From positions 491,891 to 555,890 of the forward strand of contig OZ241738.1 of NCBI GenBank assembly GCA_965200925.1: a stretch of DNA of 64,000 nt, in the 5' to 3' direction. Both the position numbers and the translations under genes were made by a program. Each line of letters opens with the position of its first letter. The stretch's first letter is position 1. This DNA comes from Alphaproteobacteria bacterium (GTDB taxonomy: Bacteria > Pseudomonadota > Alphaproteobacteria > UBA828). Shown piece by piece: positions 3,791 through 64,000 of the stretch. Under the pieces are notes generated by a model. That model made no database searches. It was not told where the DNA came from and worked only from the letters and a program-made list of their open reading frames with translations.

Positions 3791-3897
3791 GGGAACCTCC
3801 AATGACCCGCTGCCCTTCTCAGGCCGATTAATTGGGGGATTACATACATAGGTTGACAAGAGGATATCAGCTTCGCTGCAGTTCGCTACCCGTATAA

Positions 3898-10191: not shown

Positions 10192-10203
10192 GGAGATACC
10201 GCA

Positions 10204-12100: not shown

Positions 12101-12132
12101 AGATGAAGTTGGGGGGAGGGGAGGAGAGATGA
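12016..12132 (+). pseudogene. pglX 5' stub (MSALSRESRRALERAVRKARAAAEAGAGK + 9 unrelated codons); insertion scar
   Basis: Translation is identical to the first 28 residues of full-length PglX at 14025. Terminates after KLGGGEER; its stop overlaps the ATPase-2 start (ATGA). Confidence 0.7.
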
Positions 12133-13355: not shown

Positions 13356-13969
13356 CGTCGGCGCGCCATTTTATATTTCTTGTCGAGGAACCATCCATGG
13401 AGGCGTTTCTCCAGGCGCTCGTTCCACGTATTCTTCCCGATTGCGAGTGCGACATTCGACTGTTTCAGGGGAAACGGGATACGATGAAAAATCTACCGAA
13501 CCGTCTTCGCGCTTATAGCCGCTGGCTGCCCGAAAATTGGCGTATCGTCGTGATGGTCGATCGCGACAACGACGATTGCCGGCTGCTCAAGGCGCAGCTG
13601 GAAAAGGCAGCTGCCGAGTCGCGGCTACGCACGCGCGCGCAATCCGGCGGCGCTTGTTGGCAGGTCGTCAACCGCATCGTGATCGAAGAACTGGAGGCTT
13701 GGTATTTCGGAGACTGGGACGCCGTTCGGCGCGCCTACCCAAAGGTTCCCGATACGATTCCGGGGAAAGCTAAATACCGGAACCCGGACGAGATACACGG
13801 CGGAACGTGGGAAGCATTCGAGCGTGTCCTTCAGAAGCACGGGTATTTCAAGGGTGGGCTACGCAAGATCGAGGCCGCGTGCGCCATCGCCCCGCACGTC
13901 GATCCAGGGCGCAACCGGTCGCCGAGTTTCGCGGCGTTTCGCGATGCACTCGTCGAGGCGGCTGCCTGA
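13352..13969 (+). CDS. Small TOPRIM-like partner protein (DUF4276-like), module 2
   Basis: ATG 13352 overlaps the ATPase-2 stop. ~205 aa. FIFLVEEPSMEAF (conserved Glu) and VMVDRDNDD (DxD) are typical of TOPRIM. Confidence 0.55.
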   Translation: MTSARHFIFLVEEPSMEAFLQALVPRILPDCECDIRLFQGKRDTMKNLPNRLRAYSRWLPENWRIVVMVDRDNDDCRLLKAQLEKAAAESRLRTRAQSGGACWQVVNRIVIEELEAWYFGDWDAVRRAYPKVPDTIPGKAKYRNPDEIHGGTWEAFERVLQKHGYFKGGLRKIEAACAIAPHVDPGRNRSPSFAAFRDALVEAAA

Positions 13970-14002
13970 CGATGGCGATTGGGAAGAAATGCTGGCGGCG
14001 CG

Positions 14003-17735: not shown

Positions 17736-20494
17736 CCTTCCAACGACAGGCCACGGAAAAGTGGCGTAACGAAGTCCCCGGCGCGCGCTGGTTCAAGGCC
17801 GACCTGCACGTCCATACCATCGACGACCACGCCGGCCGGGCGAAAATGCCGGACGGCCTGTCGGGCGATCCGGCGGACCCACAGACGCTGGAGGACTACG
17901 CGCGGCGCTTTCTCCGGGCCGTCGTGGAACGCGGCGTGCAGGTCGTCGGGCTGACGCCGCATTCGCCGCGCGCGGGGGACGGCTCGGACACGAGCGCCGT
18001 CTGGCGCATCGTCGAGGAGTGGAACGAAGGAACCGACGACGACGGCATCCCGTTCCGGAAGAAGATATACGCCGTGTTCCCCGGATTCGAACCGTCGCTC
18101 CGGGAGGGAAAAGAAGGCTTGCATCTCCTGTTTCTGTTCGATCCCGAAATCGGCCGCGATCGTTATCTGAGAGTCTTCGATCTTGTTATGGGCGGCGTTT
18201 CGCCTTGGCAAGGCGGAACCTTGCAGATCTCCGGCAAGCGTGCGGACCAAGCTTTCGACGATTTGAAGAATTTCCGGGAGCGTGAACACTCCGTCGGCGA
18301 GGGTTGGAATTCTCTTGTCCTCGCCCCCCATATCGACGCCGACAAGGGTTTGCTCGGCACGCAGAAAGCCCAGGTTCTGCAACTCTTTGATCACGGAGCA
18401 ATCGCCGGTCTGGAACTCGGCGACGACAAGCTGCCGAAAGAAATTTTGCAGAACCGTCTGTGGCTCCGCGATGGAATGGAAACGCATCGTCAGGCGTTCT
18501 TCCACGCCAGCGACGCCTACGGTCCGGGCGACGTCGGCCGTCGCCATACGTGGATCAAGCTCGCGAGTCCGCGCATCGAAGCCCTGCGCCAAGCGTTCGT
18601 CGCCAGCGATTCGCGCGTGCGGATCGGCTTCGAGAAAGGCAGCGATGGCGCGCTCCGGCCGATCGACCATCCGCCCGCCGTTATATCCGGAAACCGCCCT
18701 TGGCTGAGAGAGGTGACGGTACGCGGCGGCGTTTCGTTCTTCGGCGGCCAGGAAGATGGTAAGCCGAGAGGGACCCGCTTCCGGCTGAATCCGGACCTGA
18801 CCTGCATCATCGGCGGCAGCATGACCGGCAAGAGCACCTTGCTCGACGGCCTGCGCTTGCATGTCGGTGCGCCGTTGCCCTCCAACGAGGCGGTCCGCAG
18901 GCAGGTCGAAACCCGGGGCCGGAACGTTTTCGCCGCCGGTTCGCCCGAGGTTGCGCTCGACTGCCCTGGCCAGGACCCCACTGCACCACCGTTGGAACGG
19001 TGGCCCGCCCGGTTCTTCGCCCAGAACGAATTGCAGCGCCTCTCCCAAGAGAGCGCGGCCGCTGAAGACATTCTTGCGCGCCTGATTCCGTCCGAAATAG
19101 AAGGAATCGATGGGCGCGGCGCCGAGTTGAAACGCCTCGACAAGCGCCTCGCCGATCTGGCCAGGCAGCTCGCGAAACTCGATGAAACCGTCGGGGAAGC
19201 GGAGCAGGATTGTCAACGCACCGGCGACGCGAAAGTGGCGCTCGCCGCCTTTTCCGAAGCCGGCGTGGACGATCTCCACCAAGCCAGCCGTGAGCGGCGG
19301 GCCTGGGAATCGACGGCGAGCACCGTTCAGACGGCTCTCCGAGGTCCTGTCAGGGAAATCGTTCGAGCCGCGCGGGAAATCGACTTGCCGCCCGTGGGCG
19401 GGAAGCAGGTGGAGATTCCGTCAGAGAATTCGGTCGATTGGCGAAAGCTGGATCTGGACGGAAGACAACGCCGGATCGTCGAACGCCTGGAAGCCGTGTC
19501 GCAAGAGGCGGAGAAATGGATCGCTGACATTCTCGACGTCTCCTTGAAAATGGGCAAACGCGAGGCCGCCGTTCGTATCGAAGTGGAGCGAGCTCTTGCC
19601 GCCCGCGGATACGACGCCGGGACACTCAAGGAGATTCAGCAACTCACACGCCAAGCATCGCTGTTTCCCAATTACGCGGCGCATCGCGACGATACGCGCC
19701 GCCGACTCGCGGCGGACGAGAAGGCGTTCGGCGACTCGTCGAAGGAGCGCCGTGCTCTCGTCGAAGAGCAGCGACGGGCCTTCGCGCGCGTTGCCCAAGG
19801 CGTGAACCGGGAATTCGGAGGCCGGATCCGTGTGCACCGGATTGACGACGCCGACACCCGGACTCTCGACGATTTCTTGAGAGGGCTACGGCAAAAGGGC
19901 GTGACGCGCTGGTGGAACGACTTCGACCCGACGAAGAAACCCTCGCCCGACAGGCTGGTCGCGTGCCTCGCCGCTGGTTCCCTCGCCGAAGTCGGCATGA
20001 GCGATGCCGTCCAGGAAAGGTTCCGCGAGAGCGTCACCAAGTCGAAGCGGCGTGAGTTGGCCGCGCTGCGGTGCCCGGACCGTTACGTTCTCGAACTGCG
20101 GATGGACGACGGTTCCTACCGCCCTCTGGACGATCTTTCTGGAGGCCAACGAGTCAGCGTTCTTCTCTCCCTTCTTCTGGAAACCGAAGATGCCCGCCCG
20201 CTGGTGATCGACCAACCCGAGGACGAACTCGACAACCGGTTTCTGTCGGAAACGGTCCTCCCGGCACTGAAGAAACTGCGCGGTCGGCGGCAAGTCATCG
20301 TCGCGACGCACAAGGCGGAGATCGTCGTCAATGGAGACCCCGACATGGTGATCCTTCTCGACGCGACGGCCCACCACGGGCGCGTGGCATGCGCCGGCGC
20401 GATCGAGGAACCGGCCGTTCGCGACGCCATCGTGCGCACTGTGGACGGCGGGGAGGAAGCATTCCGTCTTCGACGGCGGAAATACGGATTCTGA
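17732..20494 (+). CDS. PHP-domain phosphoesterase fused to an SbcC/RecF-like ABC ATPase (920 aa); nested accessory gene between pglX and pglZ
   Basis: N-terminal PHP motifs: FKADLHVHTIDDHAG, LTPHSP, APHIDADKG. RecF/SbcC-like N-lobe with Walker A: LTCIIGGSMTGKSTLLDGLRL. Long coiled-coil-like middle region. ABC signature and Walker B/D-loop: LSGGQRVSVLLSLLLE...LVIDQPEDELD. ATG overlaps the pglX stop. Confidence 0.7.
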   Translation: MTFQRQATEKWRNEVPGARWFKADLHVHTIDDHAGRAKMPDGLSGDPADPQTLEDYARRFLRAVVERGVQVVGLTPHSPRAGDGSDTSAVWRIVEEWNEGTDDDGIPFRKKIYAVFPGFEPSLREGKEGLHLLFLFDPEIGRDRYLRVFDLVMGGVSPWQGGTLQISGKRADQAFDDLKNFREREHSVGEGWNSLVLAPHIDADKGLLGTQKAQVLQLFDHGAIAGLELGDDKLPKEILQNRLWLRDGMETHRQAFFHASDAYGPGDVGRRHTWIKLASPRIEALRQAFVASDSRVRIGFEKGSDGALRPIDHPPAVISGNRPWLREVTVRGGVSFFGGQEDGKPRGTRFRLNPDLTCIIGGSMTGKSTLLDGLRLHVGAPLPSNEAVRRQVETRGRNVFAAGSPEVALDCPGQDPTAPPLERWPARFFAQNELQRLSQESAAAEDILARLIPSEIEGIDGRGAELKRLDKRLADLARQLAKLDETVGEAEQDCQRTGDAKVALAAFSEAGVDDLHQASRERRAWESTASTVQTALRGPVREIVRAAREIDLPPVGGKQVEIPSENSVDWRKLDLDGRQRRIVERLEAVSQEAEKWIADILDVSLKMGKREAAVRIEVERALAARGYDAGTLKEIQQLTRQASLFPNYAAHRDDTRRRLAADEKAFGDSSKERRALVEEQRRAFARVAQGVNREFGGRIRVHRIDDADTRTLDDFLRGLRQKGVTRWWNDFDPTKKPSPDRLVACLAAGSLAEVGMSDAVQERFRESVTKSKRRELAALRCPDRYVLELRMDDGSYRPLDDLSGGQRVSVLLSLLLETEDARPLVIDQPEDELDNRFLSETVLPALKKLRGRRQVIVATHKAEIVVNGDPDMVILLDATAHHGRVACAGAIEEPAVRDAIVRTVDGGEEAFRLRRRKYGF

Positions 20495-49014: not shown

Positions 49015-49173
49015 CCCGCCCTCCTTTCGGTTCGCTTCGCCCGAGCCTACGGAAGCCGCCGCGCCCTGGCAAGGCGGGTCTTGATGCGCACTTGCATCGG
49101 GGGCTAAAATCTGATAGGAACACACCATGCACAAAGAGACTGCCCGCCAGGGGCGAAGGGACCGCGCACCGGA

Positions 49174-50421
49174 GTGCTCCCGATGAGCGGCGGCCCGAAC
49201 TGGTCCAATCAGACGATCTGGACTGCGGACAACCTCGGCATCATGCGGGGGATGAACGCCGCGTCGGTTGACCTTATCTACCTCGACCCGCCGTTCAACT
49301 CGAAGGCCAATTACGCCGCGCCCATCGGAAGTAAGGCGGCCGGTGCCGCCTTCAAGGATACGTGGGGACTCGACGATGTGAATCTCGCGTGGCATGGCGA
49401 GATCATGCACGAGCATCCGGGGCTCTACGCCTTGCTCCAGGCGACGCGACAGATACACGGTGACTCCATGATGAGCTACCTCATCTACATGGCGATTCGC
49501 GTCATGGAGATGAGGCGGCTGCTCAAGCCGACCGGGAGCATCTACCTCCACTGCGACACCTTTGCCAGCCACTACCTGAAACTGCTGATGGACAGCTTGT
49601 TCGGAAAGCAATGCTTCCGAAACGAAATCGTGTGGCGGATCGGTTGGGTGAGCGGATTCAAGACGCAAAAACGGGGATGGATCAGAAACCACGATACCAT
49701 CCTGTATTACGTGGCCTCCCCGGGCGCCGCTAAACGGTTCAACAAGGAATACATCCCATATGCGTCCGATTATGTGCGGCGCGACGGAAAGAAGCCGACC
49801 GGCAAAGGCATTCCGTTAGAGGACACATGGAATTGCTCCGATGCCGACCGGCTGGACTCCCTGATGATCAAGAGCTTCGCTCAGAAGACTGGCTATCCGA
49901 CCGAAAAGCCGCTCGACTTGGTTCGGCGCATTATCCGGGCCAGCAGCAATGAGGGCGATATGGTGCTTGACCCCTTCTGCGGATGTGCCACGGCGTGTAT
50001 CGCGGCGGAGATCGAACAGCGCCGATGGGCAGGGATCGACATCTCACCGAAGGCGGCAGATCTCGTAAAAGACCGGATGGATAAGGAACTTGGCTTGTTC
50101 TACAAGGGCGCGCACCGTACCGACATCCCGAAGCGCACCGATCTTGGAAAGGTCATCCGCTACAACGATGCGAAGAACAAACGATACCTATACGGCGAGC
50201 AAGGCGGTTACTGTAACGGATGCGAACACCATTTCGAGATGCGTAACCTTGCGGTAGACCACATCATCCCGCGATCGAAGGGCGGAACGGACCATATCAG
50301 TAACCTGCAACTCCTGTGCGGGGCCTGCAACTCTCTCAAAGGCGACCGGCCCCACGAATACCTGCTTGCATGCCTGACTGACAAGGGATGGATAAGGCGG
50401 AAGAAGGCCGCTCGAAACTGA
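49174..50421 (+). CDS. Beta-class DNA (N6-adenine/N4-cytosine) methyltransferase fused to a C-terminal HNH endonuclease domain; lower-GC, no adjacent R gene
   Basis: Motif [15 protein letters not shown] precedes motif [18 protein letters not shown] (beta-class order). HNH: [45 protein letters not shown]. Confidence 0.75.
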
Positions 50422-50674
50422 ACGAGGTGCTTGACATGTGGGGGGATCTGGTATGTGGGTCTCCGAAACCCGCCTGCGCGCGAGGCATGAAACAAAAGAC
50501 AGGCGACAAGCCACCTGCCGTTGCTCTCGGCGCGTCATCCGCCATCTCTGGACGATCCTGCCGGTGGTTGAGGACGAGTGGGGTTTCCGAGGCGTTCGTG
50601 CATTTCGTACCCGACATCGAGTACGATCCGGAGTGGGCGATCCCAGTATGGCACGATGTCGCGCGGGATGAGAA

Positions 50675-50730
50675 CGCGCTTGCGCCATGCGCCCCGCCGG
50701 CCCTAGGCCTTGGCGCATGGCGCAAGCGCG
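50675..50730. terminator. 19-bp perfect inverted repeat (cgcgcttgcgccatgcgcc / ggcgcatggcgcaagcgcg) between convergent MTase-HNH and tldD; putative bidirectional terminator
   Basis: Read directly; 18-nt loop containing a cctagg palindrome; no T-tract. Confidence 0.4.
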
Positions 50731-50803
50731 TTCGACACCTTGGCTTACGCGCGCAAGCTCAAGGCCGCTGGAGTCGACGAAGCCCAGGCCGACGCGCCGC
50801 CGG

Positions 50804-52237
50804 TCAGGCTTCGGTACCGCCGACGGTGAGAGGGTCCACCAGGAGGGTGGGCAGGCCGACGCCGACGGGGACGCCCTGGCCGTCCTTGCCGCAGGTGCCG
50901 ACGCCCGGGTCGAGGGCGAAGTCGTCGCCGACGGCCGCCACCCTGGTGAGTACGTCCGGGCCGTTGCCGATCAGGCTCGCGCCCTTGAGCGGCGCGGTCG
51001 CCTTGCCGTCCTCGATCAGATACGCCTCGGAGGCCGAGAACACGAACTTGCCCGAGGTGATGTCCACCTGCCCGCCGCCGAAACTCCGCGCGTACACGCC
51101 CCGCTTCACCCGGCGCAGGATGTCCTCCGGCGCGGCGTCGCCGGCCGGCATGAAGGTGTTGGTCATGCGCGGCAGGGGCGCATGGGCAAAGCTCTCGCGC
51201 CGCCCGTTGCCGGTCGGCTCCATGCCCATCAGGCGGGCGTTCAGGCGGTCCTGAAGATAGCCGCGGAGGATGCCGTCCTCGATCAGCACCGTGCGCCCCG
51301 TGGGCGTGCCCTCGTCGTCCACGGTGAGCGAGCCGCGGCGGCGGTCGAGGGTCCCGTCGTCCACCACGGTGACGCCCGGCGCCGCGACTCGCGCGCCGAG
51401 AAGCCCGGAGAAGGCGCTGGTCTTCTTGCGGTTGAAATCGCCCTCCAGGCCGTGGCCCACCGCCTCGTGCAGCAGGATACCCGGCCAGCCGGGGCCCAGC
51501 ACCACCGGCATCTCGCCGGCCGGTGCCGCCACCGATTCGAGATTGACCAGCGCCTGGCGGAGCGCTTCGTCCACCTGCGCCCGCCACCGCTCGGGCGCCA
51601 GGAAATCCGCATAGGCGACGCGCCCGCCCGTCCCGTGGGAGCCCGTCTCCTGACGGGCGCCGTCGCCCACCATGACCGAGACGTCGAGGCGCACGAGGGG
51701 GCGCAGGTCGCAGGCAGAGGCGCCGTCGGCGCGGACGATCTGCACCGCCTGCCAGCTGCCGGAGAGGGAGGCCATCACCTGGCGCACCCGCGGCTCCTTC
51801 GCCCGCGCGTAGGCGTCGATCTCCGCCAGCGCCGCGACCTTGTCTTCGAAGGGCGCGGAATCGAGCGGGTTGTCGCCGGCGTAGAGCGCGCGGTCGGTCC
51901 GCGACGGCCCGTCCGCGTGAAGCCCGCCATGGCCCCGCCGGACGGCACGGACGGTCTCGCAGGCCCGCTTCAGCGCCGCCTCGTCGAGCGCGCCGGCGTG
52001 GGCGTAGGCGCTGGTCTCACCGGCCACGGCGCGCAGGCCGAAGCCCTGGGCGGTGTCGAAGGCGGCGTTCTTGAGGCGGCCGTCGTCGAACGCGAGGCGC
52101 TCGCTCTGGCGGTATTCGAGGAAGAGCTCGCCGTCGTCCGCGCCCTCCAGGGCCTCGCCCACCAGCCGCTCGGTGCGCGCCCGGTCGAGGCCGGTGCGCC
52201 CGAAGAAGAGATCGTCCGTGATCGATTCGCGGTTCAT
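50804..52237 (-). CDS. tldD: Metalloprotease TldD
   Basis: MNRESITDDLFFGRTGLDRARTERLVGEALEGADDGELFLEYRQSE... conserved throughout; 477 aa. Confidence 0.9.
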   Translation of the reverse strand: MNRESITDDLFFGRTGLDRARTERLVGEALEGADDGELFLEYRQSERLAFDDGRLKNAAFDTAQGFGLRAVAGETSAYAHAGALDEAALKRACETVRAVRRGHGGLHADGPSRTDRALYAGDNPLDSAPFEDKVAALAEIDAYARAKEPRVRQVMASLSGSWQAVQIVRADGASACDLRPLVRLDVSVMVGDGARQETGSHGTGGRVAYADFLAPERWRAQVDEALRQALVNLESVAAPAGEMPVVLGPGWPGILLHEAVGHGLEGDFNRKKTSAFSGLLGARVAAPGVTVVDDGTLDRRRGSLTVDDEGTPTGRTVLIEDGILRGYLQDRLNARLMGMEPTGNGRRESFAHAPLPRMTNTFMPAGDAAPEDILRRVKRGVYARSFGGGQVDITSGKFVFSASEAYLIEDGKATAPLKGASLIGNGPDVLTRVAAVGDDFALDPGVGTCGKDGQGVPVGVGLPTLLVDPLTVGGTEA

Positions 52238-52459
52238 CCTGGCCTCCCGCCGCCGGCGCGCCGGGCCGCGCCCGGCGGAAATCCGCGCCCCGACCGCCCG
52301 CCGTCAATGCAGGGCTTCAAAAACGACGGGGCGCGTGTTAGGACCCTGCCCGGTCCCGCATGCGCCATGCCGCGCAGCGCCGGGTGTGCGGGCGCGCCCC
52401 GGTCCGGGCATGGGCGCGACCTGTCAGGTGGCTTTCGCCGAGCGAGTGGAGGAGCCGGA

Positions 52460-53323
52460 GTGAGGTATCTCGCGAAACTGGGCGCGCGGATGACCGCCGC
52501 CGCCGGCTTGGCTGTCGCCGGACCGGCGGCGGCACAGGCGCCCACCCCCTGGGAGATCGATTTCCAGACCGCGCTCTCGCCCTCCATGGAGCGGATCGTC
52601 GATTTCAATTTCATGGTCACGATCATCATCGTGGTGATCACGGCCTTCGTGTTCGGCCTCATGGCATGGATCGTGATCCGCTACAACGCCAAGCGGAACC
52701 CGGTGCCGACGCGCACCACCCACAATACCCTCCTTGAAGTGGCCTGGACCATCGTGCCGGTGATCATCCTCCTGGTCATCGCCGTCCCCTCGTTCCGGCT
52801 GCTCTATTTCACCGACAGCGTCGAGGACGCCGACATGACCCTCAAGGCGGTTGGCCACCAGTGGTACTGGTCCTACGAATATCCCGACCACGGCGATTTC
52901 ACCTTCGACGCAGTGATGCTGGAGGAGGACGAGCTCGAGGAAGGGCAGCTCAGGCTGCTGGCGACCGACACCCCCGTCGTCCTGCCGGTCGGCGCCACGA
53001 TCAGGCTGCTCACCACCGCCGACGACGTGATCCACTCCTGGGCGGTGCCGGCGCTCGGCGTCAAGCTCGATTCGGTGCCCGGCCGGGTTAACGAGACCTG
53101 GTTCCGGATCAACCGGGAGGGCACCTATTACGGACAATGCTCCGAGCTCTGCGGGACGCTGCACGGCTTCATGCCGATCATGATCGAGGCGGTCCCGCAG
53201 GAAGCCTTCGACGCCTGGGTGGAGGAGGCGCGGGAGGAATACGCATCCACCGGCGCGCGCCCCGACCGCGTCGCGGCCCTCGCCGTCGGCGCGCCGGGGG
53301 AAGACGCGCCGGCGGCGCGCTGA
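52460..53323 (+). CDS. coxB: Cytochrome c oxidase subunit II
   Basis: GTG 52460 after SD ggaggagccggag. Two TM helices. CuA site HSWAVPALGVKLDSVPGRVNETWF...GQCSELCGTLHGFM. Confidence 0.9.
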   Translation: MRYLAKLGARMTAAAGLAVAGPAAAQAPTPWEIDFQTALSPSMERIVDFNFMVTIIIVVITAFVFGLMAWIVIRYNAKRNPVPTRTTHNTLLEVAWTIVPVIILLVIAVPSFRLLYFTDSVEDADMTLKAVGHQWYWSYEYPDHGDFTFDAVMLEEDELEEGQLRLLATDTPVVLPVGATIRLLTTADDVIHSWAVPALGVKLDSVPGRVNETWFRINREGTYYGQCSELCGTLHGFMPIMIEAVPQEAFDAWVEEAREEYASTGARPDRVAALAVGAPGEDAPAAR

Positions 53324-53338
53324 GGGAGGAGAGAGGCC

Positions 53339-54937
53339 ATGGCGCACGAGGCCCACGCCCACGCCACGCACGACCACATGCCGCGGGGCATCACGCGGTG
53401 GCTCTACTCCACCAACCACAAAGACATCGGCACGATGTACATCGCGTACGCGGTGGTGTTCGGCATCGTCGGCGCCGTGCTCTCCATCTTCATGCGGATC
53501 GAGCTCGCCGAACCGGGGATGCAGATCTTCGTCGATCCGCACACCTTCAACGTCTTCGTCACCGGCCACGGGCTGATCATGGTGTTCTTCATGATCATGC
53601 CGGCGTTCATCGGCGGCTTCGGCAACTGGTTCGTGCCGCTGATGATCGGGGCGCCCGACATGGCCTTCCCGCGCATGAACAACATCAGCTTCTGGCTGCT
53701 GGTGCCCTCGGGCGCGCTGCTGGTGACGTCGATGTTCGTGGATGGCGGCCCCGGGCCGGGGGTGGGCGCGGGCTGGACGGTGTACGCGCCGCTCTCGACC
53801 TCGGGCCACGTCGGGCCGGCGATGGACCTCGGCATCTTCGCGCTCCATCTCGCCGGCGCCTCCTCGATCCTGGGCGCCATCAACTTCATCACCACCATCC
53901 TCAACATGCGCGCGCCGGGCATGACGATGCACAAGCTGCCGCTGTTCGTCTGGTCGGTGCTGGTGACGGCGTTCCTGCTGCTGCTGTCGCTGCCCGTGCT
54001 CGCCGGCGCGATCACCATGCTGCTCACCGACCGCAATTTCGGCACCGCCTTCTTCGACGCGGCCGGCGGCGGCGATCCGATCCTCTACCAGCACCTGTTC
54101 TGGTTCTTCGGGCACCCGGAGGTCTACATCCTGATCCTCCCGGCCTTCGGGATCGTGAGCCACATCGTCTCGACCTTCTCCCGGAAGCCGGTCTTCGGCT
54201 ATCTGGGCATGGCCTACGCGATGGTCTCCATCGGCTTCATCGGCTTCGTCGTCTGGGCGCACCACATGTTCACGGTCGGCATGGACGTGGACACCCGCGC
54301 CTATTTCGTTGGCGCGACGATGGTCATCGCGGTGCCGACCGGCATCAAGATCTTCAGCTGGATCGCCACCATGTGGGGCGGCTCCATCGAGTTCAAGACG
54401 CCGATGCTCTGGGCCTTCGGCTTCATCTTCCTGTTCACCGTGGGCGGGGTGACGGGCGTGGTGCTGGCCAATGCCGGGCTGGATAGCGCGCTGCATGACA
54501 CCTACTACGTGGTCGCGCACTTCCACTACGTGCTGTCGCTCGGCGCGGTGTTCATCATCTTCGGCGCCTTCTACTACTGGATCGGCAAGATGTGCGGCCG
54601 GCAATATCCGGAGGCGCTCGGCAAGCTCCACTTCTGGATCACCTTCGTCGGCGTGAACCTCACCTTCTTCCCGATGCACTTCTCCGGCGTCTCGGGGATG
54701 CCGCGCCGCATCCCGGACTACCCGGACGCCTTCGCCGGGTGGAACATGATCTCGTCCATCGGCTCCTACATCTCGGCGGCGGGCCTGGTGCTGTTCCTCT
54801 ACATCCTGGTCTACACGCTGTTCTTCGGCCGGCGCTGCGCCGACAATCCGTGGGGCGAGGGCGCGCGCACCCTCGAATGGACGGTCCCGTCGCCCGCGCC
54901 ATTCCACACCCACGAAGAACTCCCCCGGGTCCGCTAG
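53339..54937 (+). CDS. ctaD: Cytochrome c oxidase subunit I
   Basis: [15 protein letters not shown]...[24 protein letters not shown]...[16 protein letters not shown]; 532 aa. Confidence 0.95.
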
Positions 54938-54956
54938 GCGGGGGCGGAGGGGCGCC

Positions 54957-55877
54957 ATGACCGAGCCCGCGGCCGCCGGGGCGGCCTCCGCCGGGAGCGC
55001 CGGCCCCGTCGCGCTGGGCGACGCCCTGGCTCTGCTCAAGCCGCGGGTGATGTCGCTGGTCGTGTTCACGGGAGCGGTGGGCCTCGTCGTCGCGCCGGGC
55101 GGCATCCACCCCCTGATCGCGCTGGTCGCCGTGCTCTGCATCGCGGCCGGTGCCGGCGGCGCGGCGGCCATCAACATGTGGTACGACAGGGATATCGACG
55201 CCGCGATGGCGCGGACCCGCCACCGGCCCGTCCCGGCCGGGCGGGTGGAGCCCGGCGCCGCCTTGGGCCTCGGCATCGTCCTGTCGGCGGGGGCGACGGC
55301 GCTGATGGGAATCGCCGTCAACTGGCTGGCGGCCGGCCTGCTCGCCTTCACGGTCTTCTTCTATGTCGTGGTCTATACGATGTGGCTGAAGCGGCGCACG
55401 CCGCAGAACATCGTGATCGGCGGCGCCGCCGGCGCCTTCCCGCCGATGATCGGCTGGGCCGCGGCGACCGGCGAGGTCGGCCCCGCTGCGGCGGCGCTCT
55501 TCGCCATCGTCTTCCTGTGGACGCCGCCGCATTTCTGGGCGCTGGCGCTGGTCCGCGCCGACGACTACGCCCGTGCCGGCGTGCCGATGCTGCCGGTGAC
55601 GGCCGGTGCCCGCGCCACCCGCCGCCAGATCGCGGCCTACGCGCTGCTCCTGCTACCGGCGGGCTTGGCGCCTTGCGCGCTGGGCGCGGCGGGCGCGGTG
55701 TACGGGGCAGGCGCCCTCGTCCTGGGCCTTCTGCTGGCGGCGGGCGCGTTCCGGGTGTTGACGGACCGAGGCAAGGCGGCCGCCCGCCGGCTGTTCGGCT
55801 TCTCGATCCTCTACCTGTTCGCCCTGTTCGCGCTCCTGGTCGTGGACAGCGCGTGGCCGGTTCCGGTCTGGCCATGA
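54957..55877 (+). CDS. ctaB: Protoheme IX farnesyltransferase (heme O synthase)
   Basis: [21 protein letters not shown]...[25 protein letters not shown]... Confidence 0.9.
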
Positions 55878-56005
55878 GGGATGAAGCGAGGGGCCGCGAG
55901 GCCGGGCGGCGGCGGCGCGTGCGGAATCTCGCCGTCGGCGGCGCGCTGCTGGCGCTCGCGATCCTCTTCTACCTGATCACCATCGTCAGGATGGGAGGCG
56001 CGTGA
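55874..56005 (+). CDS. Small membrane protein of the cox cluster (CoxF-like position)
   Basis: 43-aa ORF with a single hydrophobic helix [20 protein letters not shown]; ATG overlaps the ctaB stop; sits between ctaB and ctaG. Confidence 0.35.
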
Positions 56006-56006
56006 G

Positions 56007-56594
56007 ATGGCGCGGGCGGGCAGGCGCCGGGTGGCGACCGCGCTCGTCCTGGGCGGGGTGGTCTTGGGCATGGCCGGCCTCGCCTTCGCCGCCGTCCCTC
56101 TCTACCGGCTCTTCTGCCAGGTGACCGGGTTCGGCGGCACCGTCCAGGTGGCGGAAGCGGCGCCGGCCGAGATCGGCGAGCGCATCGTCACGGTGCGCTT
56201 CAACGCCGACACCGCGCGCGACCTGCCCTGGCGCTTCGTTCCGGAGCGGCGCGCGATGGCCGTGCGCGTCGGCGAAGTGAACTTGGCGTTCTACAGCGCC
56301 GAGAACCTGTCCGACCGGGCCTCGGTTGGCAGTTCGACCTTCAACGTCACGCCGGTGAAGGCGGGGGTCTATTTCAACAAGATCGAATGCTTCTGCTTCG
56401 AGGAGCAGGCGCTCGCGCCGGGCGAGCGGGTGCGGTTCCCGGTGTCGTTCTTCGTCGATCCCGACATCGTCGAGGACCGGCGGCTCGACGATGTGAACAC
56501 GATCACCCTTTCCTATACGTTCTTCGGACGGGGCGGCGGTGCGGCCGAGGCCGCCCTGTCCGACGAGGGAGCGAGAGCGAGCGATGGCGGATAG
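56007..56594 (+). CDS. ctaG: Cytochrome c oxidase assembly protein CtaG/Cox11
   Basis: NADTARDLPWRFVPE...FNVTPVKAGVYFNKIECFCFEEQALAPGE (CFCF copper motif). Confidence 0.85.
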   Translation: MARAGRRRVATALVLGGVVLGMAGLAFAAVPLYRLFCQVTGFGGTVQVAEAAPAEIGERIVTVRFNADTARDLPWRFVPERRAMAVRVGEVNLAFYSAENLSDRASVGSSTFNVTPVKAGVYFNKIECFCFEEQALAPGERVRFPVSFFVDPDIVEDRRLDDVNTITLSYTFFGRGGGAAEAALSDEGARASDGG

Positions 56595-57390
56595 CGCGCA
56601 CGGTGCGGCGAACCACGATTTCCACATGGTGCGGCCGAGCCCGTGGCCGGTCATCGGCGCCCTCGGCGGCGGCGGGCTGGGCCTGGGCGGCGTCGTCGTC
56701 TTCATGCATTCCGGGCAGCTCTGGCTGATGACGATCGGCGGCCTCGTCGTCCTCCTGACCATGTATTTCTGGTGGCGCGACGTGATCCGCGAGGGGCTGG
56801 TCGAAGGCGAGCACACCCAGGTGGTGCAGCGCGGCCTGCGCTTCGGCATGATCCTCTTCATCGCCTCGGAGGTCATGTTCTTCGCGGCGTTCTTCTGGGC
56901 GTTCTTCAACGCCTCGATCATGCCGACGGACGCCATCGGCAACGTCTGGCCGCCGCCCGGAGTCGAGGTCATCCCGGCTTGGCGGCTGCCCTTCATCAAC
57001 ACGCTGCTGCTGCTCACCTCGGGCGCGACGGTGACCTGGGCCCACCACGCGCTCCGCCACGGCAACCACCGGCACACGATCTACGGGCTGGCGCTGACCG
57101 TCATGCTCGGCGTCGCCTTCATCGGCGTCCAGGGCTACGAATACGCCCATGCGGCGTTCGGCTTCCGCGAGGGGATCTACCCCTCCACCTTCTTCATGGC
57201 GACGGGGTTCCACGGCTTCCACGTGACGGTCGGCGCGATCTTCCTCGCGGTCTGCCTCTACCGGGCGTTGAAGCGCCAGTTCAAGCCGGATCAGCACATC
57301 GGCTTCGAGGCGGCCGCGTGGTACTGGCATTTCGTCGACGTGGTCTGGCTGTTCCTCTTCATCTGGGTCTATTGGTGGGGCGAGGGCTGA
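56584..57390 (+). CDS. coxC: Cytochrome c oxidase subunit III
   Basis: HDFHMVRPSPWP...ASEVMFFAAFFWAFF...GFHGFHVTVG... Confidence 0.9.
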   Translation: MADSAHGAANHDFHMVRPSPWPVIGALGGGGLGLGGVVVFMHSGQLWLMTIGGLVVLLTMYFWWRDVIREGLVEGEHTQVVQRGLRFGMILFIASEVMFFAAFFWAFFNASIMPTDAIGNVWPPPGVEVIPAWRLPFINTLLLLTSGATVTWAHHALRHGNHRHTIYGLALTVMLGVAFIGVQGYEYAHAAFGFREGIYPSTFFMATGFHGFHVTVGAIFLAVCLYRALKRQFKPDQHIGFEAAAWYWHFVDVVWLFLFIWVYWWGEG

Positions 57391-57400
57391 TCGCGAGGCC

Positions 57401-57727
57401 ATGGGGGAGAGCTACCATCCACCGGTCTCGGTCCTGAAGGCGGGTTTCCTCTCCCGCTGCCCCCGCTGCGGGCGCGGCAGGCTCTTCGCCGGCTACCTGC
57501 GCGTCGCCGAACGGTGTGAGGCCTGCGCCTTCGAATTGCGGCGGCACGACAGCGGCGACGGGCCGGCGGTCTTCGTCATGTTCCTCGTCGGCGGAGTCGT
57601 CGTCGCCCTCGCGCTCTGGCTCGAACTCGCCTTTGAACCGCCCTATTGGCTCCACGTGGCGTTGTGGGCGCCCCTGATCGTCGTCGGCAGCCTCGTCCTG
57701 CTGTGCGGCCCGCCAAGGCCATCCTGA
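57401..57727 (+). CDS. DUF983 family protein (cox-cluster associated)
   Basis: CPRCGRGRLFAGYLRVAERCEAC zinc-ribbon-like region followed by 2 TM helices; 108 aa. Confidence 0.75.
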   Translation: MGESYHPPVSVLKAGFLSRCPRCGRGRLFAGYLRVAERCEACAFELRRHDSGDGPAVFVMFLVGGVVVALALWLELAFEPPYWLHVALWAPLIVVGSLVLLCGPPRPS

Positions 57728-58486
57728 TTGCCCTCCAGTACCGACACAAAGCCGCCGGCTTCGGCGCGGAGTGACCGCGCCCGCCGGCGCGCCACCCTGT
57801 TCGCGATCCCCGGCGTGCTGATCCTGCTCGCGCTCGGCTCCTGGCAGGTCCACCGCCTGATGTGGAAGACCGAGCTCAACGAGGAGCGCCGCGCCCGCCA
57901 CCAGGCGGAGGCGGTGCTGCTCCCGGCGGTGCTCGAAGAGCCGGCTTCCTTCGCCTTCCGCCGCGTCTGGCTGGAGGGGCGCTTTCGCCACGAGGCGGAG
58001 ATGTTTCTCGCCGCACGCACCCACGACCGCCGGGTCGGCTACCACGTGATCACGCCGTTCGAACGGGAAGGCGGCGCGCCCGTCCTGGTGAATCGCGGCT
58101 GGGTGCCGCTCGACAACAAGATGCCGGAAACGCGGCGGGCGGGGCAGATCGAGGGGCGCATCCGCTTCGAAGGCGTCGTGGTGCCCGGCGGGCGCGCCGG
58201 CTGGTTCACGCCGGACAACGCGCCCGAGGAAAACCTCTGGTTCTGGGCGGACACGGAATCGCTGGCGGCGAAGGCGGGCATCCCCGCGCCCGGGTTTCTG
58301 GTCGAGGCCGGCCCTGCGCCCAACCCCGGCGGCCTCCCCATCGGCGGGCAGACGAAGGTCGAACTGCGCAGCGAGCATCTGCAATACATCGTCATCTGGT
58401 ACGCCCTCGCGGTGGCCCTCGCGGTCATCTACCTCCTCTACATGCGCCGCGGCCGCCGCGACGATTCCGGAGAGGCCGGAGCGTGA
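57728..58486 (+). CDS. SURF1 cytochrome oxidase biogenesis protein
   Basis: LALGSWQVHRLMWKTELNEE...HDRRVGYHVITPFEREGGAPVLVNRGWVP. Confidence 0.85.
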   Translation: MPSSTDTKPPASARSDRARRRATLFAIPGVLILLALGSWQVHRLMWKTELNEERRARHQAEAVLLPAVLEEPASFAFRRVWLEGRFRHEAEMFLAARTHDRRVGYHVITPFEREGGAPVLVNRGWVPLDNKMPETRRAGQIEGRIRFEGVVVPGGRAGWFTPDNAPEENLWFWADTESLAAKAGIPAPGFLVEAGPAPNPGGLPIGGQTKVELRSEHLQYIVIWYALAVALAVIYLLYMRRGRRDDSGEAGA

Positions 58487-59970
58487 GCGCCTACGGCGCG
58501 CTGGAGGCCCGGTTCGCGCGCCTCGGCAACCTGGCCGGCGCGGCCGCGATCCTGCATTGGGACTGGGCCGTGACGATGCCGCCCGGCGGCGCCCAGGTGC
58601 GCGCGGCCCAGCTCGCCGAGCTCGAGCTGCTCCGCCACGAAGCGTTGACCGACTCCCGCCTGGGCGACCTGCTGGACGAAGCGGCGGCGGAGGAGGGCGT
58701 CCTCGACCCGTGGCGCCGGGCCAATCTCGCCGCCATGCGCAGGCGGCGGCGCCTCGCGGCAGCCCTGCCCGCCGATCTGGTCAAGGCGTTGAGCGAGGCC
58801 GCTTCGCGCTGCGAAATGGTCTGGCGTGCGGCACGCCCGGCGAACGACTACGCGGGGTTCGCGGCGGCCTTCGCGCCGCTGCTCGGGCTGGTCCGCGACA
58901 AGGCGGCGGCGCTCGCCGACGCCCTGGATTGCGCCCCCTACGACGCGCTGGTCGATCACTATGACGCCGGGATGCGCTGCGCGATCATCGATCCGTTGTT
59001 CGCCGATCTCGCGTGCTTCCTGCCGGATTTCCTCGGCTGCGTCCGCGAGCGCCAGGCGCGCGCGGTGCCGCCGGCCCCGCCTCTCCGCGCGCCCGAGCCG
59101 GCGCAGAAGGCGCTGGCCCGGCGCCTGATGGCGGCGCTCGGTTTCGATTTCGACCACGGGCGCCTCGACGCCAGCTTCCATCCCTTCTGCGGCGGCGTGA
59201 GCGGGGACATCCGGGTCACTGCGCGCTACGACGAGGCGGACATCCTGTCCGGTCTGATGGCGGTCCTGCACGAGACGGGCCACGCCCTCTACGAGGCGGG
59301 CCTGCCGGCGGAATGGCGGCTCCAGCCCGTGGGCGAGGCCGCCGGCATGGCGCTCCACGAGAGCCAGTCGCTGCTGGTCGAGATGCAGGCCTGCCGCAGC
59401 CTGTCGTTCATGCGCTTCCTGGCGCCGCTTCTGCGTGATCTTCCTGGCGGCGACGGCGGCGCGGCGACGGCGGAGGCGCTTTACCGCCGGGCGGTCCACG
59501 TCGAGCCGGGCTTCATCCGGGTGGAGGCCGACGAGGTGACCTACCCGGCGCACGTCATGCTCCGCTACCGGCTGGAGAAGGCCTTGGTCGCGAGCGATCT
59601 CGCCGTGGGCGATCTCCCCGGCGCCTGGGCCGACGCGCTCGACTCCCTGCTCGGCTTGCGCCCGCCCGATCACGCCCGCGGCTGCCTGCAAGACATCCAC
59701 TGGGCGGCCGGCGAGTTCGGCTACTTCCCGAGCTACACCCTGGGCGCGCTGATGGCGGCGCAGTTCTTCGCCGCCGCCGCCCGCGCCGTGCCCGATCTCT
59801 GGCCGGCGCTCGGGCGCGGCGATTTTGCCCCCCTTCTCGGCTGGTTGCGGGCCAACGTCCACCGCTTCGCCTCCCGCCACCCCGCCGCCGGGATCGTCGA
59901 ACGGGCGACCGGCGCTCCCCTCGCCACGACGGCCTTCAAGACCCACCTGCACCGCCGCTACCTCGCCTGA
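58483..59970 (+). CDS. Carboxypeptidase Taq (M32) metallopeptidase
   Basis: HETGHALYE (HExxH), DIRVTARYDE, GCLQDIHWAAGEFGYFPSYTLG. Confidence 0.85.
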   Translation: MSAYGALEARFARLGNLAGAAAILHWDWAVTMPPGGAQVRAAQLAELELLRHEALTDSRLGDLLDEAAAEEGVLDPWRRANLAAMRRRRRLAAALPADLVKALSEAASRCEMVWRAARPANDYAGFAAAFAPLLGLVRDKAAALADALDCAPYDALVDHYDAGMRCAIIDPLFADLACFLPDFLGCVRERQARAVPPAPPLRAPEPAQKALARRLMAALGFDFDHGRLDASFHPFCGGVSGDIRVTARYDEADILSGLMAVLHETGHALYEAGLPAEWRLQPVGEAAGMALHESQSLLVEMQACRSLSFMRFLAPLLRDLPGGDGGAATAEALYRRAVHVEPGFIRVEADEVTYPAHVMLRYRLEKALVASDLAVGDLPGAWADALDSLLGLRPPDHARGCLQDIHWAAGEFGYFPSYTLGALMAAQFFAAAARAVPDLWPALGRGDFAPLLGWLRANVHRFASRHPAAGIVERATGAPLATTAFKTHLHRRYLA

Positions 59971-60024
59971 TTTCGGGTTCGCGGGCTGGAGGCCGTGCAT
60001 CCGAAATCACGAACAGGGGAGCGG

Positions 60025-63000
60025 TTACGCCGCCAGGGTGTGTTCGATGATTCGGCGGAGGCAGGTGGGATCGTGCAGGAAGTAGACTCCGCGCTTCTCC
60101 CATTCGCGCTGCGGGCGCGACTCGTCGCCGATGTTCTGGGGTGCCGTGACGGAGAGGACGTAGGCATGCAGGCGGAGCGCCGGGTCGGCTTCCCGCACCC
60201 GCGCCTCGGTCTCCTTGATCTCGGCGTGCAGCCGCACCTTGCGCCGTTCCTTCGGGCCGTAGCGGCCCAAGCCCTTCGGGTCGAGGAAGACGACGTGCTG
60301 ATCCGCCTCGTCCTTCAACCAGACGATGAAATCCGGGTAGTAGGCGAAGTCGTCGAAGAACGACAAGCCCCGGCCCCGCGTCATGTTGCGGATCAGGTAG
60401 AGTTCCCGCCCCCGCAGGCAGGGGGCGTCCGTCTTCGCCAGCCCGGCCAGCGCCTCGACGACCTTGCGCTCGCTGTCGTCCAGGGGGACGGGCTGGACGG
60501 AGATTTCGCCCTTCCCGGCGGCGGCGTAGAGGAGCGGCCTGTAGGCGTGGGTGTCGGCCATGACGGCGCCGACGTTCATCAGACGACAGACGCTGCCGTC
60601 GCGCAGGAGGGCCGCGAATCCACGGACATCCTCGACCAGCGTTTTCTTCGCCGCGTCCACGGAGAGCCGGTATTCCCGGATGTTGTTGGGGTCGGCCTCG
60701 CCCAGCGTCGTCACGTCGATGTTGGCGTGCTCCCACCGCCGGCGGCGCTTGCGCCAGAACCGGTCGGCGTACTCGGCGATCAGGTCGACGGCCAGCGCCT
60801 CCAATGCGCGCAGGTCCTCGACGCGCCTGACAGCCAGCCGCTCCGGCGGCGCGCGGAGGGTGTACCACCCGTCGTCGTCCAGCAGCCGGTCCACCGTCTC
60901 GCGCTCGATGGCCAGATTGTTCCAGCCCATCCGCCGCTTGCGCGCCAGCAGCCTGTCGTGGATGCGCGCCCGGTCGAAGAAGGCGACGTGGCGGCGGTCG
61001 AGCCTGACCTGCGCCTTCCCCGTTCCAGGCGCGGCGTCGGGAGCGCCGGCCTGGGCGGTTTGCAGCCGCGAGTACAGATCCATTTCCACGACCGGCGGTG
61101 CGTCCGGCTCAGGGGGCGGCAGGGTGGGGCGGTCGTCCGAGCGGTCGTAGGCCGTGCCCTCTTCGAGGCGCAGGATTTTCAGGTCCTTCCTGGCGAAGTT
61201 CCAGGTGACGGGCAGGGTGATGGTTTCCCGCTCCGCGCCGATGCCCTCTTCCCGCAACAACTCGCGGAAGGTCTGCATGTAGGCGGCGCGCAGACCGAAG
61301 ATGCGGAGAGTCTCCAGTTCCGCCAGAAGGCCGCCGTCGGCGGGCGGTTCGGCGCCGCTCTCGCGGTGGCGCTTCAGGCTCATGTTCCAGCCCTTCAGCC
61401 GCACGCCGCGGCCGAACATCTGGACGATCTCGGGCCCCTCGCCGACGCCGACATGCATCAGCCCCATGGTGCTCACCCGCCAGGAATTCCAGCCGGCGAT
61501 GAAGCGCCGCGCGCCGACGACGAGGTTCACGGTCGACTCCGCCCGGTCCACGTTGGCGAAGAGCCGCTCGGCGAAGCCGGCTTCCCGCTCGACCGCGAGA
61601 TCGGGGTTGGCCGCCTCGACGAGCAGCCGGTGGAGCGCCGCCGAGTCGCCCACATTGACCACGCCGAACGGCGGGTTATCCGCGCTGCGCAGATGCAGTT
61701 CGCCTTCGCCGGCGGTGAGATAGACGACATGCAGCCGCCCCTTCCCGTGGAACAAGGTTTGGCAGACGTCGTCATAGATCGTGCCGGCCCCTTCGCCTTC
61801 CAGCCCGCCGAAGCGGCCGGTGAAGTAGTCGCGGCCGGAATCGTCGGTCAGCCCTGCTTCCCCGGTGAGCAGGCGGGCGATCATCGGGCGCACCGCCTCG
61901 CCATGGGCCAGCACCCAGGCGAGGAAGTCGAGGATGCGGAGGACGTCCGACCGGGTTTCCCTGTCCGCACGAGAGTTGCCGGTGACCGTCTTGCCCAGGA
62001 AGACCCAGAGCGGCCTGGCTACGTTGAAGGCCTGCCATCCGGCGTGCCCGTCGCGCCAGATGCGGCACTGCCGGTAGAAGCTCAGGAGGCAGCCGAGCAG
62101 GTACATGCGGCTGTTCGCGTCCTCCGCCCCGCCCGGCAGGTTGGAGATGGCGTAGTCCTTGCCGTAGCCGTCCGCATGGAAGGCGCGGTAGGGGTAGTCG
62201 AACAGCAGGCATTTGCCGTAGGCGTCGCGCAGGCTCTCGTCTTTCGCGGTGATCTGGTTGAAGGTCGCCGAATATTCGAAGGTGAAGCCGCCGCGGGAGA
62301 GCGCCGCGCGCCGTTCGCGCCAAGCCTTGCCCGAGGCGCCCAGATGGCCTTCGTCCACCAGCACCAGGTTGTCGCCGCCGAAATCGCTCACGGCGACGCG
62401 CTTGATTCCCTTCCTCTCCGCCAGCTTGTTGATGTCGACGATTTCGATGGGCGCCAGCAGGTCGGCGCCGGCCGCGCTGGAGAAGAGGCGCGCGTGCAGG
62501 CCGCTTTCGTCCAATTCGCGTTCGTGCTGCGCCGACAGCTGTTCGTTCGGCGTCACCAGTACGACGTTGACGGGTCGCTTGCCGGCGCGCGCCCGGTAAT
62601 GGCGATATTGCAGGATGTGGGCGTGCATCAGCAGCGTCTTGCCGGAGCCGGTGGCGCTCTGGAAGGCCAGGGTGCGCAGGTCGTCCGTCTCGTAGCCCGG
62701 CATCCACCGGGTGAGGGGGTCGTGGAGCCGGGCGCGGTTCAGGTCCGCCCGCAGCGTCTCCGGGTCGTCGAACCAGCGGCGCAGGTAGTGTTCGGTGAAC
62801 AGCAGGGCGAGCCATTGGTGGGGTTTCCAGGTTCGCCCGTGTTCGCCGGTCATGCGCAGGCGGCGGCTGTGCGCGGCGATGTTGGCGTCGTATTCGACCA
62901 TGTGCTCCCGTGCGACCGTGGCCCGTTGCGGGTCCAGGTAGAGCGCCCGCGCGTATTCGCTTTCGCCGCCGGGCCCGATGTCGGCGGGGATGCCGCGCAG

Positions 63001-63117
63001 CCGGTCGAGCATTTCGTTCATGCCCTTGTGGTAGCCGAATTCGCGGCAGGCGAAGCGATGCAGGACGAGGCGGTTGCCGAGGGGAGCGGCCTTCGGCTTG
63101 CGGGTGCGCGGCGGCAT
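60025..63117 (-). CDS. SF2 helicase fused to a C-terminal PD-(D/E)xK-like nuclease domain (Type III restriction Res-like / helicase-nuclease defence protein), solitary
   Basis: Motif I AFQSATGSGKTLLM. Motif II LVLVDEGHLG. Motif VI QMFGRGVRLKG. C-terminal YYPDFIVWL...VVFLDPKG fits a PD-(D/E)xK signature. 1030 aa. No adjacent Mod-like gene. Confidence 0.6.
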   Translation of the reverse strand: MPPRTRKPKAAPLGNRLVLHRFACREFGYHKGMNEMLDRLRGIPADIGPGGESEYARALYLDPQRATVAREHMVEYDANIAAHSRRLRMTGEHGRTWKPHQWLALLFTEHYLRRWFDDPETLRADLNRARLHDPLTRWMPGYETDDLRTLAFQSATGSGKTLLMHAHILQYRHYRARAGKRPVNVVLVTPNEQLSAQHERELDESGLHARLFSSAAGADLLAPIEIVDINKLAERKGIKRVAVSDFGGDNLVLVDEGHLGASGKAWRERRAALSRGGFTFEYSATFNQITAKDESLRDAYGKCLLFDYPYRAFHADGYGKDYAISNLPGGAEDANSRMYLLGCLLSFYRQCRIWRDGHAGWQAFNVARPLWVFLGKTVTGNSRADRETRSDVLRILDFLAWVLAHGEAVRPMIARLLTGEAGLTDDSGRDYFTGRFGGLEGEGAGTIYDDVCQTLFHGKGRLHVVYLTAGEGELHLRSADNPPFGVVNVGDSAALHRLLVEAANPDLAVEREAGFAERLFANVDRAESTVNLVVGARRFIAGWNSWRVSTMGLMHVGVGEGPEIVQMFGRGVRLKGWNMSLKRHRESGAEPPADGGLLAELETLRIFGLRAAYMQTFRELLREEGIGAERETITLPVTWNFARKDLKILRLEEGTAYDRSDDRPTLPPPEPDAPPVVEMDLYSRLQTAQAGAPDAAPGTGKAQVRLDRRHVAFFDRARIHDRLLARKRRMGWNNLAIERETVDRLLDDDGWYTLRAPPERLAVRRVEDLRALEALAVDLIAEYADRFWRKRRRRWEHANIDVTTLGEADPNNIREYRLSVDAAKKTLVEDVRGFAALLRDGSVCRLMNVGAVMADTHAYRPLLYAAAGKGEISVQPVPLDDSERKVVEALAGLAKTDAPCLRGRELYLIRNMTRGRGLSFFDDFAYYPDFIVWLKDEADQHVVFLDPKGLGRYGPKERRKVRLHAEIKETEARVREADPALRLHAYVLSVTAPQNIGDESRPQREWEKRGVYFLHDPTCLRRIIEHTLAA

Positions 63118-63418
63118 GGTTTTCAGGATACCCTATGGAGGCGGGCCGGAAAGCGCCCGCGCGCCGCCGGGATTGCCTGCGCCGGGTGGACATCGCACGT
63201 TCCTGGAAGCGCGACCAAGCGGAAGGACGGGCCATGGTGAAGCGCTCCGGCTCCCAGGCATCCGGAGAGGGTGCCGGCGCGGTGGCCGTTCGGAGGGAGA
63301 TCGTGGAAGATCACATGTCCGGCCAGCCGGGGTTTCTTCCGGGTATCCCCATGTCGGTTGCCCCGGTGGGAAGGATGCGCGATAGTGCTCCGACGGGGTT
63401 GCCGGAGGCGAGAGGGGC

Positions 63419-63817
63419 ATGGGAGTCATGCACGTCACCGTCACCATCCGCAATCCGGCCGAGCCCGCCCGCGCCTGGGAGGGGCCGTTCCTGGTCGATA
63501 CCGGCGCGATCGATTCCCTTGTGCCGCGGCCGCACCTGGAAGCCGTCGGGCTGAAGCTCAAGGGGCGGCGAGTGTATGAAACCGCCGACGGCCGTGAAGT
63601 CGAAATGGACGTCACGACCGGAGACATCGAGGTCATGAGGGAGATCACGGCGGGGCTCATCATCGTCGGAGACGCCGATGCCGAGCCGCTGCTCGGCGTG
63701 ACGGCCCTGGAGTCGGTGGGAATCGAAGTCGATCCGCAGAATCAGCGGTTGAAGAAATTGCCTGCCGTGCGGCTCAAAGGGGTTGCGTGCCGTTTCGATA
63801 GGCCATCACGTCGATGA
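63419..63817 (+). CDS. Retropepsin-like (clan AA) aspartic protease family protein
   Basis: FLVDTGAIDSLVP is the DTG active-site motif; 132 aa. Confidence 0.55.
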   Translation: MGVMHVTVTIRNPAEPARAWEGPFLVDTGAIDSLVPRPHLEAVGLKLKGRRVYETADGREVEMDVTTGDIEVMREITAGLIIVGDADAEPLLGVTALESVGIEVDPQNQRLKKLPAVRLKGVACRFDRPSRR

Positions 63818-63910
63818 TCATTCGAGAGATATTTCAAGCGCATAGGCTCCGGTAAGGGCTCGTATCCATAACGTTGCGAAAACGTTGGATGGGCAGCGGA
63901 ACGATGTCGA

Positions 63911-64000
63911 TTATCGTTCATCGTTCGAATCCTCGAACATCAGCTCGCGGAATACCGGTTCGATGGTCACGGCGATCCAGCCCTCGCCGGGCTGGCACAA
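63911..64000 (-). CDS. 3' end of an unknown CDS continuing beyond the window
   Basis: Open frame from the window edge: ...LCQPGEGWIAVTIEPVFRELMFEDSNDER, stop at 63911-63913. Confidence 0.2.
   Translation of the reverse strand: MCQPGEGWIAVTIEPVFRELMFEDSNDER

Follow-up and report, generated by a model that had tools for sequence, protein, structure and literature searches.

The gene res, encoded on the minus strand at 60025..63117 of a 64,000-nucleotide stretch of DNA from an Alphaproteobacteria bacterium (GenBank assembly GCA_965200925.1, contig OZ241738.1, positions 491,891 to 555,890; hereafter the window), probably specifies the restriction subunit of a two-subunit, ATP-dependent restriction-modification (R-M) system of Type III-like kind, a reading to which we give a probability of about 85%. 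Its 1030-residue product, Res, combines a superfamily 2 (SF2) ATPase with a predicted C-terminal PD-(D/E)xK nuclease and belongs to a long-form family in which Mod, the partner methyltransferase, spans ~1040-1110 residues and Res ~1020-1120 residues. The original prediction, made from the letters of the window, had taken the gene for a solitary helicase-nuclease without a Mod, and had offered either a single-protein defence gene resembling Hna or a Res whose Mod was lost. Neither proposal fared well against the DNA at the window edge and the homologous loci; the locus is an added member of an already catalogued, ordinary Type III-like R-M kind.

The window holds only 883 bases upstream of res, which is why Mod escaped the first reading. 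Within these bases, on the same strand and ~800 bases upstream of res, lie the last 29 codons of mod (63914..64000, 87 bases) and the stop codon, together 63911..64000 (minus strand), with the gene running on past base 64000. A tblastn search with the Mod proteins of homologues placed the last ~20 Mod residues at 63994..63932 (minus strand, 70% identity). The 196,847-bp metagenome scaffold L084, which is 99.04% identical to window positions 50786..64000 over 13,215 bases and collinear with them to base 64000, carries in order an intact 1040-residue Mod, an oppositely oriented gene for a 132-residue aspartic protease and Res, followed, as in the window, by the M32 carboxypeptidase and the cox operon; its Mod tail is identical to that of the window at 28 of 29 residues. 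Moreover, one member of the Res cluster, P0124, is 100% identical to the window Res, and a 1048-residue Mod, P0378, has a C-terminus that exactly matches the 29-residue window tail, LCQPGEGWIAVTIEPVFRELMFEDSNDER, including a Cys that sets the window and P0378 apart from L084. P0124 and P0378 are each recorded on a contig of 3,548,566 bp. Because the Mod tail lies in the window, L084 has an intact Mod and P0378 bears the exact tail, the apparent absence of Mod is, judged from sequence, an artefact of the window edge. Thirty bases taken from the last 69 of the window had no match in a metagenome scan.

The partner is recognizable as an N6_N4 methyltransferase of the beta class (PF01555), in which motif IV (DPPY, at 511 in the L084 Mod and 519 in P0378) comes ahead of motif I (FxGxG; FAGSG at 788 and 796, respectively). 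P0378 scores against the PADLOC model MTase_III PDLC03646 with E 3.7e-202 over nearly the whole model. Compared with solved Type III Mods, the L084 protein matched Mbo45V at E 7.9e-22, a Mod in 6k0w at E 2.5e-20 and the EcoP15I Mod, 4zcf_A, at E 1.9e-16; 7dsu is also among the homologous structures.

Pairing of the two genes is a regular property of the family. Eighty loci were fetched from species-representative genomes, and 83 in all were searched with the homologues' Mod, which lies upstream of Res and on the same strand in 81 of them; the two exceptions, L001 and L028, offer less than 810 bases of upstream sequence. Gaps between Mod and Res cluster at ~0-100 bases, at ~880-1030 bases and at longer distances, and the first two homologues on megabase contigs show a 1033-1060-residue N6_N4_Mtase, a small gene and the helicase in that array order. 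The arrangement extends to plasmid-borne sister clades (E. coli/Klebsiella IncF, and Hymenobacter swuensis pHsw1), whose members share 33-38% identity with Res over 96-99% of its length and have a 1046-1113-residue DNA methyltransferase directly upstream. These sister proteins are annotated as 'DEAD/DEAH box helicase family protein', and some carry the NCBI name 'type III restriction endonuclease subunit R'.

This pairing bears directly on the proposal that res is a stand-alone, Hna-like defence gene, a single protein working without a methyltransferase. Inside the window no complete methyltransferase gene adjoins res, and the helicase-then-nuclease order is common to single-gene helicase-nuclease systems; Hna-like proteins likewise join a superfamily helicase and a nuclease in one polypeptide. 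They act alone, however, whereas Res is paired with Mod in every locus that has enough upstream sequence and in the distant plasmid homologues, and the window itself contains the 3' end of mod. In addition, the PADLOC matches of Res at E <0.01 are REase_III models plus marginal matches to PbeA and CARF (E ~0.009); none is named Hna, with the presence of an Hna model in the library not verified. We regard a stand-alone gene as extremely improbable.

Res itself is encoded by an unbroken open reading frame with an ATG start and, as the original prediction stated, is an SF2 helicase, residues 146-286 matching Pfam ResIII (E 8e-8). The ATPase/translocase core covers residues ~146-620 (61258..62682; this and all following Res features are on the minus strand) and contains the Walker A motif (motif I, G157-S-G-K-T161; 62635..62649), the motif II sequence DEGH (D255-E-G-H258; 62344..62355), the motif III sequence SAT (S283-A-T285; 62263..62271) and motif VI (Q566..G569-R-G..R573; 61399..61422). 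All four motifs, of which I, II and VI had been picked out at the outset, are invariant or nearly so both in an alignment of 46 close homologues at 64-73% identity (A1) and in one of 81 sequences from three clades, down to ~35% identity (A3). No housekeeping helicase family (Lhr, RecG or others) emerged from NCBIfam, in which the single match was RhlE at E 0.15 and 11 bits, compared with a cut-off of 743. An AlphaFold model of full-length Res was moderate, with a predicted local distance difference test score (pLDDT) of 68, a predicted template modelling score (pTM) of 0.41 and a poorly modelled motif VI region, and Foldseek matched it to generic SF2 cores (MDA5, SWI2/SNF2, Hef and EcoR124I HsdR). 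For these reasons, the full-length model was used solely to confirm the helicase core, and the nuclease domain was modelled apart. More than 6,700 homologues of Res were found, the closest outside the window's own population being 73% identical; exact look-ups of the window Res and of the neighbouring aspartic protease returned nothing on record.

The C-terminal nuclease domain occupies residues 870-1030 (60028..60510). Two peptides singled out earlier for their resemblance to a restriction-endonuclease active site, YYPDFIVWL and VVFLDPKG, hold P928-D929 (60331..60336) and D946-P-K948 (60274..60282), and the resemblance is borne out by conservation: E883, P928-D929-F930 and D946-P-K948-G949 are invariant or nearly so in A1 and A3, and E883, P928-D929 and D946-P-K948 are invariant across all three clades. 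When these residues 870-1030 were modelled alone with the three-clade alignment A2, the resulting structure had a pLDDT of 87.2, a pTM of 0.83 and the secondary-structure order alpha-beta-beta-beta-alpha-beta, with the PD just ahead of the second strand and the DxK at the end of the third. The best Foldseek matches of the domain were XisH, an R2-element restriction-like endonuclease, PaqCI and BstEII, with E-values of 4e-3 to 1e-2, none reaching 1e-3. The domain model and these matches support a PD-(D/E)xK nuclease fold of restriction type. Neither of the two results that the original prediction had named as refuting it, a C-terminus of another fold or assignment to a housekeeping helicase family, was obtained. 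In the PDB profile search, the motif region (Res ~925-960, window ~60238..60345) gave a single sub-threshold match, at E 0.15, to 7w5z_6L, an 88-residue chain labelled 'Decapping nuclease' / cytochrome c oxidase subunit 6B-like that aligns at PEFLVWF...DPKGLRN.

Among curated defence models, Res matches PADLOC REase_III PDLC03654 with E 2.9e-147 and 490 bits in two stretches, the better of which aligns Res residues 291-1017 with positions 369-1115 of the 1154 in the model. PADLOC pairs PDLC03654 with PDLC03646 as long-form systems, and the present locus shares its mod-then-res order and its protein lengths with 81 homologous loci. The locus also resembles the classical EcoP1I and EcoP15I systems (phage P1 res/mod; PDB 4ZCF): the locus encodes two subunits, and mod precedes res; Mod is of the beta class (PF01555) and homologous to EcoP15I Mod, as the match above shows; and Res, of ~1000 residues, places an SF2 ATPase before a C-terminal PD-(D/E)xK nuclease, the Type III layout that had been noted from the outset. 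There are also differences. Mod measures 1040-1048 residues compared with 644 for EcoP15I, ~400 longer, and Res is without detectable sequence similarity to EcoP1I Res, has DEGH as its motif II and can be assigned a mechanism only by analogy. EcoP1I Res matches PADLOC PDLC03649 and PDLC03647, not PDLC03654, and Res lies by its sequence outside the EcoP1I/EcoP15I Res clade.

In the homologous loci, the order is mod, a variable middle slot and res. A full-length PDC-S32 / AbiJ_NTD4 gene fills the slot in 34 of the 83 loci, as exemplified by L003, in which the middle gene matches PADLOC PDC-S32 (E 3.5e-48) and Pfam AbiJ_NTD4. The window departs from the PADLOC long-form pairs in that its slot holds neither an intact PDC-S32 gene nor nothing, but a PDC-S32 stub and, antisense to mod and res, a retropepsin-like gene. 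The stub, a PDC-S32/AbiJ_NTD4 remnant (63742..63921, minus strand), is an open reading frame whose start overlaps the end of mod and which then runs into the antisense gene; over its first 26-40 residues it is 40-65% identical to the N-termini of PDC-S32 proteins. With eight PDC-S32 proteins as queries, tblastn recovered N-termini only, at 63927..63808, and no C-terminal remnant in the window; the similarity stops where the antisense gene ends. Because just a 5' stub matches PDC-S32 and the C-terminal part is missing, the middle gene is evidently largely overwritten by the antisense gene, with mod and res kept intact. The intruder (63419..63817, plus strand) encodes a 132-residue clan AA retropepsin-like aspartic protease with a DTGA motif (NCBIfam TIGR03698, E 4.8e-23; Pfam gag-asp_proteas). 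Together with an M32 carboxypeptidase, it makes up the neighbourhood of res that the original prediction had correctly described.

The protease occupies the slot solely in the window's own lineage, that is, in the window, L001 and L084, and the slot varies more between strains than its flanks, with 92-97% protein identity for the protease compared with 99% DNA identity overall. We found no evidence for the protease acting with the R-M system, and nothing specific in literature searches on PDC-S32, or on AbiJ with Type III restriction. The 11-kb metagenome contig L001, 99% identical to the window, ends almost exactly at the junction of mod and the PDC-S32 stub (~63921), which suggests an assembly break from strain variation or from repeated copies of mod.

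All motif residues of Res are intact here. Codon differences of res from L084 and L001 number 26-27 (synonymous) and 12-13 (nonsynonymous), and they spare every invariant motif position. Random changes would be expected to produce about three nonsynonymous differences for each synonymous one. Because the nonsynonymous share falls under this ratio, the codon differences indicate purifying selection on res, by a rough count and not a formal ratio of nonsynonymous to synonymous rates (dN/dS).

Several observations weigh against an intact, Type III-like system in this organism. Res is classed as Type III by its architecture, its partner and a curated PADLOC model, not by shown homology to the Res of EcoP1I or EcoP15I: in hhalign comparisons with EcoP1I Res, the probability was 0.5% (A1) and 2.2% (A3), with nothing aligned beyond the neighbourhood of Walker A, and PDB sequence and profile searches with Res, A1 and A3 gave no significant match. 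A limited literature search found no biochemically characterised long-form member. Mod carries an unannotated N-terminal extension of ~480-500 residues that is absent in canonical Mods. Its presence in the source genome is deduced from the exact 29-residue tail, the shared contig size and the 99%-identical strain, the DNA past base 64000 not having been read. In one population variant (90% cluster), res is split at ~residue 225 into P0129 (243 residues) and P0123 (788 residues) on the same 36,200-bp contig, which may reflect a real frameshift or an assembly error. Finally, mod and res are parted here by an antisense gene, and a promoter scan found no sigma-70-like promoter upstream of res, a result of little weight at ~70% GC content. 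As the antisense gene replaces the middle gene, transcription of res probably depends on read-through or on a separate promoter; there is precedent for separate transcription in phage P1, whose res carries its own annotated promoters.

Three of these observations, namely the destruction of the middle gene with an antisense gene now set between mod and res, the frameshifted population variant and the unread upstream DNA, would fit an orphan Res, persisting as an inert remnant after the loss or inactivation of its Mod in this genome. Against an orphan stand the full-length 1048-residue P0378, with DPPY and FxGxG intact, the exact window tail and a contig of the same size as that of the identical Res; the intact Mod of the 99%-identical L084; and Res itself, which is intact, retains every catalytic residue and shows more synonymous than nonsynonymous changes. 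An orphan is accordingly judged very improbable, and the loss of Mod that had been proposed earlier finds no support.

A different alternative accepts the pair and holds that the Type III label is architectural only, Mod-dependent restriction here being mechanistically distinct from the classical process, with another translocation or cleavage geometry or a role for the Mod extension. The absence of any detectable similarity of this Res family to EcoP1I Res (which matches other PADLOC REase_III models), the ~400 additional residues of Mod with an unannotated N-terminal half, and the defence-candidate gene embedded in 34 of 83 loci are all compatible with such a departure. However, the homology of Mod to solved Type III Mods is clear, and gene order, subunit sizes, SF2 motifs and the C-terminal placement of PD-(D/E)xK fit the Type III plan; a divergent Type III lineage is the simplest reading, and nothing in the present data points to a distinct mechanism, which we consider decidedly unlikely for this locus. 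A broader proposition, that the long-form Mod/Res family as a whole (>6,700 relatives scored) forms a functionally distinct class of ATP-dependent restriction and not merely a divergent Type III branch, seems doubtful; its hallmarks would be the dissimilar Res, the extended Mod and the variable slot between the two genes. If it were true, the accessory slot, filled by PDC-S32/AbiJ_NTD4 or by a retropepsin-like protease, might add a second layer, possibly one of abortive infection.

Under the Type III-like assignment, the function of the pair can be sketched from EcoP1I and EcoP15I, for which site recognition, the dependence of Res on Mod, ATP-driven movement and two-site cleavage are established. 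By analogy, Mod would recognise a short asymmetric site and methylate one strand, and Res would be inactive unless complexed with Mod. By hydrolysing ATP, the SF2 core would then switch the complex to long-range movement along DNA, and an encounter between complexes from inversely oriented sites would lead the nuclease to cut DNA that lacks the modification. In EcoP15I, the cut falls ~25-27 bp from a site. Such cleavage would guard the cell against phage and other foreign DNA.

Members of the Res family at 58-73% identity occur in Alpha- and Gammaproteobacteria, Acidobacteriota, Nitrospirales, Binatia, Latescibacterota, Spirochaetia and Caldilineaceae (loci L004-L083), a spread over very different phyla that points to horizontal transfer. 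Several record titles among the loci bear sponge-associated names (Poriferihabitaceae, Porisulfidus). Two separate Mod-Res copies share one contig in three cases: L017/L018 on CBDBCV010000012.1, L026/L027 on CBDBNQ010000002.1 and L024/L042 on OZ242026.1. The plasmid sister clades differ from the window in their surroundings. In E. coli pEC316_2 (L085) and Klebsiella IncF plasmids, a SNF2-related protein is encoded directly upstream of Mod, and no such gene occurs here; in H. swuensis pHsw1 (L086), the neighbours are very large AAA-domain proteins, not present here, and a primase/polymerase. The SNF2-related neighbour raised the possibility of DISARM; this candidate was rejected, there being no DrmA/DrmB-type match and no SNF2 gene here.

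Elsewhere in the window, a ~1.7-kb stretch (49066..50785), in place of which L084 has 189 bases, contains a gene for a 415-residue N6_N4 methyltransferase-HNH fusion (49174..50421, plus strand; PF01555, E 8e-37; C-terminal PF01844, E 5e-13). This gene was considered as a possible distant Mod and rejected, given that it is Type II-like (best PADLOC matches, MTase_II models), that L084 lacks the insert in which it lies and that its resemblance to the long Mod is confined to DPPY. With a GC content of ~0.63 compared with ~0.70 nearby, the stretch looks like a strain-specific mobile insert and not a Type III Mod. The edge of the insert, immediately upstream of the end of the TldD gene, carries a perfect 22-base inverted repeat whose arms are 18 bases apart (50672..50733). 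Three further segments (2001..4000, 10001..14000 and 16001..20000) have a GC content of 0.62-0.64 against a background of ~0.70-0.75 and may be additional horizontally acquired islands.

The value of these results is mainly corrective: what seemed to be an orphan helicase-nuclease is best read as the restriction subunit of a normal two-gene system that happens to straddle the end of the window, and res is not a candidate for a new single-protein defence gene. The long-form family to which it belongs is very large and distributed over many phyla, often with a defence-candidate gene, PDC-S32, between mod and res. In the lineage of the window, an unrelated antisense gene appears to have overwritten this slot and to have spared mod and res.

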